Part shown: piece after piece, positions 15,184 through 46,622 of the stretch
Layout of the letters: every line of letters starts with the position of its first letter
Position numbering within the stretch: the first letter of the stretch is position 1
From: Candidatus Kaiserbacteria bacterium
GTDB lineage: Bacteria; Patescibacteriota; Minisyncoccia; Phycocordibacterales; UBA2100
Direction of reading: 5' to 3'
Assembly: GCA_016217925.1 (NCBI GenBank)
Contig: JACRFK010000004.1
Coordinates: 46,435 to 110,434, forward strand
Length of the DNA stretch: 64,000 nucleotides
Position numbers and translations under genes: made by a program
Notes under the pieces: generated by a model
Told to the model about the DNA's origin: nothing
What the model saw: the letters and a program-made list of their open reading frames with translations, nothing else
Databases searched by the model: none

Positions 15184-15497
15184 GTAGCAATACTATACCA
15201 AAGCGATGGCCCCGCTCGTAATCAACGATAAGCGGGACCAAAATACCTGAGTTTTGTGAACATGAGCGAGAGAGTCTGACTATCTGCCCACGCGATGACC
15301 GCGAAACCAACCATCATGCACAGGCAAAACATGAGGGTCGAAAGCACTCGACTTTTTGACGGGAAAAACCTTTCAACCGCCAGCCAGAGTACGAAGCCTC
15401 CGGCAAGGCCAAGAAACCACATGGGGCACCTCACACAACAGTTACAACTGCCTTGTGTATACAGGGTTAGCAACCGAACGTCAACAAAAACTCTTTG

Positions 15498-15579
15498 TGC
15501 GCAGGGGGGGACTCGAACCCCCATGCCGTGAGGCACACGCACCTCAAGCGTGCTGGTCTACCAATTTCCACACCTGCGC
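15498..15579 (-). tRNA. tRNA-Leu (GAG), class II with long variable arm
   Basis: Acceptor GCGCAGG/CCTGCGC, anticodon stem CACGC/GCGTG with loop TTGAGGT (GAG), long variable arm, T-arm GGGGG-TTCGAGT-CCCCC, discriminator A. Confidence 0.8.
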
Positions 15580-15581
15580 AT

Positions 15582-16259
15582 TTACAACTGCTCGCCTACT
15601 ATAGCTAACATTTGCTGTATTTTCAAACGCTTCCGCGATAGATACACCGGACTGGGTCCGGCATACATTTTTCGCAAAATTTGGAGACTTTCACGTTTTG
15701 CGTACTTCAACTGCATGCACGCATTCTTTTTGACGGGGCCGGTTACGTGGCCGTGTGCGCCTGTTCGTAATTCAATGCTCTTCCGTAACCAATTAAGAAA
15801 TGTGGAACTCGCTGAGGCAAAAATGAGATAAAACATGAAGCTTGATTTCCATCGAGGATCCCAATACGAGTGGGTGCAACCATCTCCATCAAAGACACCC
15901 CGCAAAAAGTGGAAAAAATATTTGTCAGGAACTTTAATGGGGCCGAGCGTCTTCGATTTAGAAGGAGTAAGACCGACTGATAATAAAAAATTATAAAAAA
16001 GAACGCTCCTAAACTGAATACGCAGGGCCTTTTTCGTCGTCGAGGATTTCTTGGCTGTAATCCGAAAATCAACGTCGACACACCGATTGAAATTTTCCAG
16101 CTGCTCGCGATCGGTCGATGTTAAATCAATAAGTGTAGATTTCGAGGCTAGACAGCCGTCGGTTGCTAATAAACCAATGGCGTACGCAAGCCTCGGCGAC
16201 CACAATTGTGAAATCCTTCTTTTTGCATTAAATCCAGGTTTTGGTCCTCTCTTCCCCAT
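15582..16259 (-). CDS. LAGLIDADG homing endonuclease, double-motif (monomeric) type
   Basis: 225 aa; motif 1 LAYAIGLLATDGCL and motif 2 FLRGVFDGDGCTH. Its stop codon lies 2 nt upstream of the tRNA-Leu 5' end on the same strand. Confidence 0.8.
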   Translation of the reverse strand: MGKRGPKPGFNAKRRISQLWSPRLAYAIGLLATDGCLASKSTLIDLTSTDREQLENFNRCVDVDFRITAKKSSTTKKALRIQFRSVLFYNFLLSVGLTPSKSKTLGPIKVPDKYFFHFLRGVFDGDGCTHSYWDPRWKSSFMFYLIFASASSTFLNWLRKSIELRTGAHGHVTGPVKKNACMQLKYAKRESLQILRKMYAGPSPVYLSRKRLKIQQMLAIVGEQL

Positions 16260-16324
16260 CGCCTTATGCTAACATACCTCAAGGTAGTAGCGTCTACCAA
16301 TTGTTGATAAATAAAAAGAGCGTT

Positions 16325-16771
16325 CTATTCGCTTTTTGTCTCTGCCGCAACCTCAGCCTCGGCCTCGGCTACCGGCGCCTCCTCCTTCGCGACGACCTTC
16401 GTCACACCGGAGACATTGACCATCATGCGCGTGCGACGTAATTGACGGCGTGCCTCACGGGCAACTTTGTCGCGAATGAAATAGAGCTTGGCGCGGCGTA
16501 CGCGGGAGCGCTTCACAATCTCGATTTTATCTATCATCGGAGAATAGATTGGGAATATCTTCTCAACGCCTACACCGGAGGCAACGCGGCGCACGGTGAA
16601 AGTGCCGCCGGCTTCGCTGCCGTGCTTGCGCGCGAGCACCAAGCCTTCGAATGCCTGGAGGCGGGTCTTACCTTTTTCTTCGATTTTCTGCCAGACGCGC
16701 ACCGTGTCCCCCGGCCGGAGGTCGAGGTTCTTGCGTGCATCCATATCCACTGGAGAAATCTTGATTGTCAT
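16325..16771 (-). CDS. rplS: 50S ribosomal protein L19 with Ala/Glu-rich C-terminal extension
   Basis: MTIKISPVDMDARKNLDLRPGDTVRVW..IYSPMIDKIEIVKR is canonical L19. The ORF track start (16846) carries a 25-aa upstream extension that is probably not translated. Confidence 0.9.
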   Translation of the reverse strand: MTIKISPVDMDARKNLDLRPGDTVRVWQKIEEKGKTRLQAFEGLVLARKHGSEAGGTFTVRRVASGVGVEKIFPIYSPMIDKIEIVKRSRVRRAKLYFIRDKVAREARRQLRRTRMMVNVSGVTKVVAKEEAPVAEAEAEVAAETKSE

Positions 16772-16933
16772 ATAAATTTGTCGCGCCTGCCTGCCGAAGC
16801 CTCGGCGCAGGCAGGGCACTATACCACTGCTAGCTATTCCGAGCAAACTTATGCACGGGATGAGTACATTTAGTAGCGCAGTCCGTTGACCATACGCCTC
16901 CGCACAGCTACTCTGTCAAAGTATCCGAAGCCT

Positions 16934-17008
16934 GCCCTCGTAGTTCAACGGATAGAACTGCGCTCTTCTAAGGCGTTAATGTAGGTTCGATTCCTACCGA
17001 GGGCACCA
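16934..17008 (+). tRNA. tRNA-Arg (TCT)
   Basis: Acceptor GCCCTCG/CGAGGGC, D-arm GTTC-AACGGATA-GAAC, anticodon loop CTTCTAA (TCT), T-arm GTAGG-TTCGATT-CCTAC, CCA encoded. Confidence 0.8.
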
Positions 17009-46106: not shown

Positions 46107-46622
46107 TCACGCGCTCGGCATCGAAGTCTTCGTTTGGGCTTCCCGCTCCGGGCCAGAGGGACGGGGATTGTTCTCCCTTTCATGAAGCGCTTTCGCTTGC
46201 TCGGCGATTAACAAGTCGTACAAATACTTCAGAACGGAGATGTCCGTCCCCTTATGCTGTCGCAATTCATCTACGGCATATTTGAGTGCCTCGACGTCGT
46301 ATTCGGATGTGCGCTGCTCCGGCTGTAGGGCGCGATTTGTGAGCGCGTATATGTTGAGGTACTCAGTCATGAGTTTGTCGACTGCTCCCTCCGCTTCACG
46401 GTTCGTTTTGAACTTGTTTGGAAGGAGGGAGGCGTACTTCGAGAGCTTCTTTCCTAGGTCGAGCACGACTCTGCGCATGGGGTCGGTATCGCGGAGCATC
46501 TGTGTAATCCTGTCTGAAGCCTGCGCTCCGGTCCCGGTGAGAACGCTCGCTGTAAGGCCGCCGGTGAGCCTCGCCGTGTCCTTCAAGAACTTTCTCCGAG
46601 ACAAGTCGGGTTCTTTGTTCAT
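46107..46622 (-). CDS. twin-arginine (Tat) signal-peptide protein, all-alpha, function unknown
   Basis: ~171 aa from MNKEPDLSRRKFLKDTARLTGGLTASVLTGTGAQA: perfect S-R-R-x-F-L-K Tat consensus + h-region + AxA. The ORF track N-terminal extension (to 47018) overlaps pilB and is rejected. Confidence 0.6.
   Translation of the reverse strand: MNKEPDLSRRKFLKDTARLTGGLTASVLTGTGAQASDRITQMLRDTDPMRRVVLDLGKKLSKYASLLPNKFKTNREAEGAVDKLMTEYLNIYALTNRALQPEQRTSEYDVEALKYAVDELRQHKGTDISVLKYLYDLLIAEQAKALHERENNPRPSGPEREAQTKTSMPSA

Follow-up and report, generated by a model that had tools for sequence, protein, structure and literature searches.

The nuclease gene and its neighbours

The stretch of DNA considered here, hereafter the window, spans 64,000 nucleotides (nt) of a Candidatus Kaiserbacteria genome (GenBank assembly GCA_016217925.1, contig JACRFK010000004.1, forward-strand positions 46,435 to 110,434), and its feature of interest is an intact, free-standing gene for a double-motif LAGLIDADG homing endonuclease lodged between rplS, the gene for ribosomal protein L19, and a gene for tRNA-Leu(GAG). 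Read along the minus strand, the order is rplS, a 65-nt spacer, the open reading frame (ORF) of the nuclease, 2 nt and then the tRNA (Table 1). A sequence-only reading of the same DNA had placed a two-motif LAGLIDADG ORF at this junction, and it was correct in every detail; the coordinates obtained here agree with its statement that the stop codon falls 2 nt from the 5' end of the tRNA. Its view that there is no intron context is likewise upheld, as a search of the region with Rfam returned the tRNA as its sole match, with no group I or group II intron even at E≤10, and the ORF has its own start and stop between the stop codon of rplS and a complete, uninterrupted tRNA.

Two further statements of that reading require qualification. 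Co-transcription of the nuclease with the tRNA, which it had held to be probable, is possible given that no terminator was found between the two, but the tRNA also has a promoter-like site of its own in the 3' end of the ORF. The gene is indeed free-standing, as had been claimed, but what was inserted is not a bare ORF: comparison of empty with occupied sites gives an insert of about 745 bp, made up of a leader of about 60 nt and the ORF, and this conserved leader includes a fragment resembling tRNA-Leu.

Table 1. Features of the rplS–tRNA-Leu(GAG) junction, in window coordinates and in minus-strand order
Feature	Position	Strand	Remarks
rplS (ribosomal protein L19)	16325..16771	(-)	Pfam Ribosomal_L19, E 2.2e-34; conserved left flank
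Leader of the cassette, 65 nt	16260..16324	(-)	T-rich stretch TTTTTATTTAT after the rplS stop, then the tRNA-like fragment and the -10-like element
tRNA-Leu(GAG)-like fragment AATTGGTAGACGCTACTACCTTGAGGT	16276..16302	(-)	D-loop through anticodon loop
Extended -10-like element TGTTAGCAT	16266..16274	(-)	Ends 6 nt before the ATG; putative promoter
LAGLIDADG homing endonuclease gene, double-motif, free-standing, intact	15582..16259	(-)	225 aa, ATG start
LAGLIDADG motif 1 LAYAIGLLATDGCL	16149..16190	(-)	Asp34 at the catalytic position
LAGLIDADG motif 2 FLRGVFDGDGC	15876..15908	(-)	Asp126 at the catalytic position
Sigma-70-like promoter (putative) TTGAAA-17 nt-TATAGT	15598..15626	(-)	Within the final 15 ORF codons; positioned for transcription of tRNA-Leu
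tRNA-Leu(GAG), complete	15497..15579	(-)	ARAGORN; Rfam tRNA 48.5 bits; conserved right flank

A LAGLIDADG protein under purifying selection

By motif, profile and predicted fold, the protein is a member of the LAGLIDADG superfamily. The two motifs end in GLLATD34G and VFDGD126G, an acidic catalytic residue closing each; D34, G35, D124, G125, D126 and G127 do not vary among 30 aligned homologues that are 58–78% identical, and D34, G35 and D126 are each conserved in at least 95% of 88 unique sequences. Among profiles, Pfam LAGLIDADG_3 (PF14528) is matched at 31.9 bits against a cut-off of 22.5, with coverage of the first domain only, and PHROG 4645, annotated as 'endonuclease', at E 4.7e-26, while NCBIfam holds no model for the family. 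The best sequence match in the Protein Data Bank (PDB) is I-Tsp061I, an archaeal intron endonuclease, and the same enzyme (2dch) heads the structural matches. An AlphaFold2 model built from 30 homologues, with a predicted local distance difference test (pLDDT) score of 89.7 and a predicted template modelling (pTM) score of 0.88, has its helices and strands ordered as expected of tandem alpha-beta-beta-alpha-beta-beta-alpha domains, the arrangement that makes up the DNA-binding saddle of such enzymes. Foldseek matched this model first to I-Tsp061I (E 3.6e-11, template modelling score 0.65–0.71) and then to I-AniI, I-DmoI and I-SceI, giving a probability of 1.00 to these four as well as to I-OnuI, at a sequence identity of just 11–17% to any solved structure.

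The ratio of nonsynonymous to synonymous substitution rates (dN/dS) lies between 0.04 and 0.11 in 32 homologue pairs, with a median of 0.08, which amounts to strong purifying selection. The beta-strands, which in the LAGLIDADG fold form the surface that contacts DNA, are the most conserved secondary-structure class in the protein, which also carries a conserved N-terminal KRGPKP extension and a C-terminal helix. Homing endonucleases of this superfamily cut targets of about 18–22 bp and leave 4-nt 3' overhangs. The conserved strand surface and the purifying selection lend indirect support to a predicted site-specific cleavage of a target of this length (~18–22 bp) by the present protein.

One chromosomal site across the Paceibacteria

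The gene belongs to a large family, with 2,117 relatives recovered at E≤0.001. The best 120 of these, setting aside the window's own 100% copy, a protein of a Candidatus Kaiserbacteria MAG, are full-length (nearly all 219–233 aa) and 57–79% identical to it; the named sources among them are Kaiserbacteria, Nomurabacteria and other Parcubacteria, and every name that those relatives have been given is either 'hypothetical' or 'uncharacterized'. A profile search over 1.8 billion representatives returned 230 clusters at E≤1e-30 and 4,299 at E≤1e-10, and in a scan of one genome per species at least 500 genomes contained a relative. A search of the literature on LAGLIDADG proteins in Parcubacteria and Patescibacteria and on free-standing endonucleases at tRNA genes turned up no description of the family.

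The surroundings of the gene were compared in a gene-anchored sample of 80 loci, selected on the nuclease itself. Wherever the upstream DNA was long enough, in 77 of 77 loci, the next gene on that side is rplS, on the same strand; tRNA-Leu(GAG) directly follows the nuclease in all 60 loci scanned for it. The distances are similarly regular: the gap between the nuclease stop codon and the tRNA has a mode of 1 nt and is mostly 0–9 nt, and the distance between the rplS stop and the nuclease start codon is near-constant, mostly 62–103 nt. The nuclease family occupies one specific chromosomal site in the Paceibacteria (Parcubacteria, within the candidate phyla radiation or CPR), uncultured, ultra-small bacteria that form a large group, where its mean pairwise identity is 60% as against 57% for L19 from the same genomes. 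In IMG/VR the relatives of the nuclease are all distant, at 24–38% identity; they are common on phage contigs, and none adjoins a tRNA. A phage vector was rejected on both counts.

As a side observation, the database titles of locus L057 and of several TPA loci (e.g., L007, L019, L050 and L063) read 'Burkholderiales bacterium' or 'uncultured Candidatus Saccharibacteria'. These titles clash with a gene content and synteny of the Parcubacteria type, and the records probably stem from mislabelled or contaminated bins.

Empty, occupied and decayed sites

Loci selected on the nuclease are blind to empty sites, and a second scan was therefore anchored on rplS. Searching metagenomes with the rplS of the window gave 80 loci whose L19 is 66–97% identical to that of the window, 61 of them with a readable junction. 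Among these 61, the cassette is present in 18 (in one of them with a stop codon), whereas 23 are truly empty, with tRNA-Leu(GAG) following rplS after 12–100 nt and no trace of the nuclease gene. A further 17 are remnants that keep just the last ~45–51 nt of the ORF before the tRNA, and in the remaining 3 the junction holds a GIY-YIG nuclease gene. About 30% of close relatives are thus occupied. A domesticated, universally present gene, which had been the initial interpretation in this analysis, was dropped when the scan showed most close relatives to be without it. The comparison of empty with occupied junctions in related genomes, which the sequence-only reading had proposed, accordingly turned up empty sites as a common state and no universal presence.

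The states are also finely intermixed. When loci are ordered by rplS similarity they interleave, with the state differing in 29 of 42 nearest-neighbour pairs, and one tight cluster (≤12% nucleotide distance) holds five occupied and five remnant loci side by side. L094, which of all loci in the set is closest to the window genome (flanking proteins 88–97% identical), has a remnant alone. The likeness of the remnants to the cassette is illustrated by locus L102, whose spacer agrees with the last 51 nt of the cassette of L081 at 49 of 51 positions, and decay is also seen in the occupied loci L067 and L135, which have in-frame stop codons. All stages of a cycle of gain, decay and loss are visible in natural populations. 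A search for pieces of the leader inside the remnant spacers found no robust alignment to it; only the 3' block of about 50 nt aligns robustly, and leader fragments in the remnants were rejected for this reason.

Three remnant loci have extra inserts between rplS and tRNA-Leu, namely L140, with a spacer of 426 nt, and L120 and L136, with spacers of 187–188 nt. The L140 insert contains a small ORF whose translation, judged by eye, we take to be a candidate winged-helix (ArsR-like) regulator, and L120 and L136 share a long perfect inverted repeat, GAATCCCAATACTTAGT...ACTAAGTATTGGGATTC. The rplS–tRNA-Leu junction thus also gathers other small insertions.

Movement between lineages

The inheritance of the nuclease was compared with that of its hosts through pairwise identities to the window, for the nuclease on one side and for 4–6 flanking host proteins on the other. 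Over all occupied loci, nuclease identity tracks L19 identity weakly (r 0.29), and in several loci the two conflict outright. Judged by its host proteins, L083 is as similar to the window as L001, L002 and L100 are (79% vs 77–85% for a 380-aa protein), yet its nuclease is only 52% identical to that of the window, against 71–73% for the other three. The opposite is seen in L106, a more distant host with three flanking proteins at 61%, 57% and 28% identity, whose nuclease is 73% identical. L003 and L005 come from very distant hosts (L19 at 62–63%, another protein at 49–51%) and have nucleases that are 67% identical to that of the window and 75–79% identical to those of Kaiserbacteria loci. These conflicts between nuclease and host-protein identities indicate that the gene has moved between lineages. 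Together with the fixed site and the empty sites, such conflict with the host tree supports the proposal of the sequence-only reading that a free-standing homing endonuclease gene has been inserted at a conserved housekeeping junction.

One pair of loci shows an abrupt change of similarity at the tRNA. From one base before tRNA-Leu rightwards, L086 and L088 are 99.6% identical over 784 nt; leftwards, their rplS genes are 83% identical and nothing is shared further upstream. This pair was considered as a homing event caught in the act and rejected as such, being indistinguishable from an assembly chimera.

The leader and the promoter-like site in the gene tail

In occupied loci the leader is highly conserved across lineages, and part of it resembles the tRNA: its consensus agrees with positions 13–39 of tRNA-Leu(GAG) at 25 of 27 positions, with an alignment score of 20.5 where shuffled sequences give 8.3 ± 1.0 and at most 12.5. 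Two blocks, GTAGACGCT and TTGAG, are conserved in at least 90% of leaders, with 6 variable nt between them. GTAGAC and CTTGAG are 8 nt apart in each of the 53 leaders with the two blocks, as against 7 nt in all 52 real tRNA genes. Owing to this fixed 1-nt difference, the fragment is to be seen as an old, conserved tRNA-derived element and not as a fresh duplication. It could be left over from the original insertion, serve as an operator, or both. Its layout is that of a LAGLIDADG site, with two conserved blocks round a variable centre over about 20 bp, and GTAGACGCT-N6-TTGAG overlaps the -35/spacer region of the gene's own promoter-like site, from which a role as operator appears plausible. 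A conserved hairpin in the leader was rejected, as its second arm varies without compensation.

Next to this fragment, a TAnnnT element ending 4–10 nt (mode 6) before the start codon is present in 77 of 86 unique leaders, is preceded by TG in 34 of these and often takes the form TGnTATAAT. None of the 86 has a motif resembling a Shine-Dalgarno sequence. The lack of such a motif and the position of the -10-like element about 6 nt before the ATG suggest, by inference from these sequence signals, that the nuclease mRNA is leaderless or nearly so.

The other end of the cassette bears a second promoter-like site, placed for the tRNA. TTGAAA-17-TATAGT is the best promoter-like site in positions 15400–16950, matching at 10 of 12 positions, and transcription from it is predicted to start about 12 nt upstream of the tRNA. 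The pattern TTGAAR-17-TAnnnT recurs in 48 of 88 unique ORF tails, always with a spacing of 17 nt, and it is exactly the part of the cassette kept in the 17 remnant loci; the true empty sites have a -10-like element in their short spacer instead. As the insertion separates the tRNA from rplS, the cassette may be supposed to supply a promoter for the tRNA, and insertion would thus be cheap for the host. Whether the site imposes a second constraint on the coding sequence was also considered, and such dual coding was rejected: third-codon positions score 0.55 in the last 18 codons and 0.55 elsewhere, in a comparison where just 48 of 88 unique sequences have the hexamer pair.

The probable target and a second nuclease at the same junction

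Empty sites show no conservation in the spacer before the tRNA, and outside the Kaiserbacteria the 3' ends of rplS vary too, leaving the tRNA-Leu(GAG) gene as the only nearby sequence conserved widely enough to contain a target of about 20 bp. The target of the nuclease therefore probably lies in the tRNA-Leu(GAG) gene or at its 5' edge, and the tRNA-like fragment in the leader points to the tRNA as well. A second kind of insert has landed at the same place. In L119, L141 and L145 an ORF of about 77 aa for a GIY-YIG nuclease (Pfam E 8e-17) lies between rplS and tRNA-Leu(GAG); in front of it stands a copy of tRNA-Leu positions 1–25 that a 20-nt palindrome, CCTGCCTGCCGGCAGGCAGG, interrupts, and the intact tRNA comes after the ORF. 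Thus, two unrelated nuclease families land 5' of the same tRNA gene.

The tRNA genes of these genomes have peculiarities of their own. They are unusually divergent, with mean identities of about 80–84%, and the acceptor stem of tRNA-Leu(GAG) comes in types (GCGCAGG, GCCCGGG, GCGCCGG and GCACAGG) that follow neither host nor nuclease relatedness. A tRNA-Arg(TCT) and a tRNA-Val(TAC) lie near rplS in most loci, in an order, strand and distance that vary even among close relatives. A faster turnover of tRNA-Leu(GAG) than of the neighbouring tRNAs was rejected, the difference in mean identity (0.79 vs 0.84 and 0.83) being marginal.

Explanations for the cassette

It is probable that the cassette is a horizontally mobile, free-standing LAGLIDADG homing endonuclease gene, one that combines the fold and the invariant catalytic aspartates with purifying selection, specificity for a single site, polymorphism for presence and absence, remnants and copies with nonsense codons, and conflict with the host phylogeny. 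Under this explanation, the nuclease would make a double-strand break in genomes that lack the gene, and the cassette would be copied in during repair, the template being an occupied site in DNA acquired from a relative and the homology arms being rplS and the tRNA. The promoter-like site in the last 15 codons would keep the tRNA expressed after its separation from rplS. Copies would later be lost by deletion, giving a cycle of gain, decay, loss and regain.

Several observations nevertheless weigh against this explanation or limit its reach. The nuclease is as conserved as L19 (60% vs 57%) and its dN/dS is very low, a constraint stronger than is usually assumed for a purely selfish gene, which leaves room for a host-level or self-regulatory role. 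The identities of nuclease and rplS are still positively correlated (r 0.29–0.58), so much of the inheritance of the nuclease is vertical. Both the cleavage activity and the target are predictions from sequence and model. The metagenome loci behind the occupancy counts come from a few sample series and include duplicates, and the breakpoint of L086 and L088 at the 5' end of the tRNA could reflect recombination or a chimeric assembly joined through an identical tRNA. Co-conversion has left no visible tract, since tRNA alleles follow neither nuclease clade nor host, and co-conversion of the tRNA with the nuclease was rejected as neither its 5' nor its 3' half correlates with nuclease or rplS identity. 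Finally, identical tRNA-Leu alleles are present in occupied (L086, L092), empty (L088) and remnant (L120) loci. A resident tRNA is hence not protected by its sequence, an option rejected on this ground, and a target lying wholly within the tRNA would also be present in carriers. Three possibilities may be entertained here: the target may span the 5' boundary of the tRNA and be split by the insert, the enzyme may tolerate or avoid the resident site, or autorepression at the leader element may keep expression low.

The main rival is a domesticated host gene that was fixed early in the Paceibacteria, came to serve the cell (e.g., in regulation or as a nuclease acting on a cellular substrate), and has been inherited vertically and lost many times. 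A dN/dS of 0.04–0.11, a mean identity equal to that of L19, a fixed position in more than 75 diverse genomes and the positive correlation with rplS are all what such a gene would be expected to show, and the remnants do document losses. It fits poorly, however, with equally related hosts carrying nucleases at 52% and at 71–73% identity while distant ones, judged on 4–6 flanking genes, carry them at 67–73%, with an occupancy of just ~30% in close relatives, and with nonsense mutations in some copies. Both catalytic aspartates are kept, unlike in WhiA or many maturases; an unrelated GIY-YIG gene takes the same site in other relatives; and the distant relatives of the protein are endonuclease genes borne by phages. 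Domestication is for these reasons regarded as unlikely.

Less probable still are explanations in which the nuclease plays no part in its own movement or moves as part of something else. The gene might be a passenger, moved by a tRNA-targeting integrase or transposase or by homologous recombination of its flanks after DNA uptake, and the partial tRNA-Leu copy in the leader does resemble the partial tRNA duplications at the ends of integrated elements, as does the fact that the GIY-YIG inserts, too, are preceded by a partial copy of the 5' end of the tRNA. Yet the nuclease is the sole product encoded in an insert of ~745 bp, and none of the loci has a recombinase gene between rplS and the tRNA. 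The fixed 1-nt spacing difference from every real tRNA marks the copy as an old element, unlike a recently duplicated attachment site, and the strong selection acting on the catalytic residues would lack an explanation. We consider this scenario improbable. An ORF within a self-splicing intron, be it in the tRNA or in a gene that has escaped recognition, or an intein, would be the customary setting, for most LAGLIDADG genes are borne by introns or inteins, including those in the rRNA genes of CPR bacteria (PMC11270868), and tRNA introns are many in Patescibacteria (PMC13011429). It is contradicted by the lack of any group I or II match at E≤10, by a downstream tRNA that is complete and contiguous, by an ORF with its own start and stop, and by empty sites that consist of rplS and then the same tRNA directly, to the point that it hardly merits further consideration.

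Returning to the mobile homing endonuclease gene, a more specific and bolder form of it may be put forward tentatively, as one that we would not expect to hold in full. The nuclease might recognize the region of tRNA-Leu(GAG) from the D-arm to the anticodon loop, and the leader element GTAGACGCT-N6-TTGAG, with its one extra base, could be an uncleavable mimic of the target serving as an operator for autorepression. The cassette would then be a self-limiting gene drive on an essential tRNA, one that brings a replacement promoter with it and competes with the GIY-YIG gene for the landing pad, and the purifying selection would reflect regulated coexistence or an added benefit to the host.

Significance and relation to known systems

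A widespread family that had no name, with more than 2,000 protein clusters and members in at least 500 species-level genomes, can be given a label, that of site-specific, free-standing LAGLIDADG homing endonucleases. In CPR bacteria, whose genomes are tiny and which are believed to import foreign DNA, homing endonucleases extend beyond rRNA introns. The cassette offers a case of low-cost insertion beside an essential gene, in that the 3' end of the ORF carries a promoter-like site for the tRNA that survives deletion of the gene, while possible mimicry of the target by the tRNA-like element over the nuclease's own promoter-like site lends itself to direct testing. Monomeric LAGLIDADG enzymes that are compact and have a conserved natural target are, moreover, candidate scaffolds for genome engineering.

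The closest structural parallels are I-Tsp061I and I-DmoI from archaeal rRNA introns and I-AniI and I-SceI from organelles, which have the same fold, two LAGLIDADG helices with a terminal catalytic aspartate and a length of about 200–250 aa. The present gene differs from them in being only 11–17% identical, in lacking an intron and in residing on a bacterial chromosome, and its protein in having the KRGPKP extension and a C-terminal helix encoded by the stretch that also holds the promoter-like site. The fold is also held in common with WhiA, which is among the structural matches (3hyj/3hyi), and with the LAGLIDADG maturases. These are domesticated proteins that have lost the catalytic residues, WhiA being near-universal in its lineages, whereas in the present family the catalytic aspartates are invariant and the gene is found in about a third of close relatives.

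Parallels in organization might be struck with elements of other kinds. In the atp6 cassettes of Allomyces, a mobile endonuclease gene in fungal mitochondria is reportedly accompanied by a displaced partial copy of the host gene. The likeness lies in a free-standing endonuclease gene beside a host gene with a partial copy next to the insert; there, however, the 3' end of a protein gene is fused in frame, whereas here an internal piece of a tRNA lies upstream and has long been conserved and is not decaying. The endonuclease I-TevI reportedly binds, without cutting, an operator similar to its homing site and overlapping the promoter of its gene. By way of analogy, GTAGACGCT-N6-TTGAG overlaps the -35/spacer region and resembles tRNA-Leu plus one base, which may be likened to that arrangement; I-TevI belongs to another enzyme family, and the comparison is one of pure analogy.

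Within the same bacterial radiation, LAGLIDADG genes have been described in the 16S and 23S rRNA genes of CPR bacteria, often in group I introns (Tsurumaki et al. 2024, PMC11270868), and tRNA introns of Patescibacteria carry HNH genes (PMC13011429). Both studies deal with intron- or insertion-borne copies and not with the present free-standing family, and the former makes no mention of copies that are tRNA-linked or free-standing. The genes of PMC11270868 are of the same superfamily and are likewise thought to home into highly conserved RNA genes, the present one differing in that it is free-standing, beside a tRNA gene and outside it. The SegB gene of phage T4, in turn, is a precedent for a mobile nuclease gene of this kind: it is a free-standing GIY-YIG homing endonuclease gene in a phage tRNA cluster, and the site of its product includes a conserved tRNA-gene motif (PMC2330249). 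The enzyme promotes the inheritance of itself and the flanking tRNA genes and in addition cuts a tRNA gene of T4 itself, at a site that it prefers less (PMC2330249). A free-standing nuclease gene among tRNA genes is thus common to both, whereas SegB is GIY-YIG and phage-borne and the present gene is LAGLIDADG, lies on a cellular chromosome and has a target that is predicted; moreover, no tRNA-like fragment in the promoter region is described for SegB in PMC2330249. Seen against these systems, the kind of element is well known, and what is new is the site, the free-standing context on a bacterial chromosome, the tRNA-like element in the leader and the putative tRNA promoter embedded in the gene.

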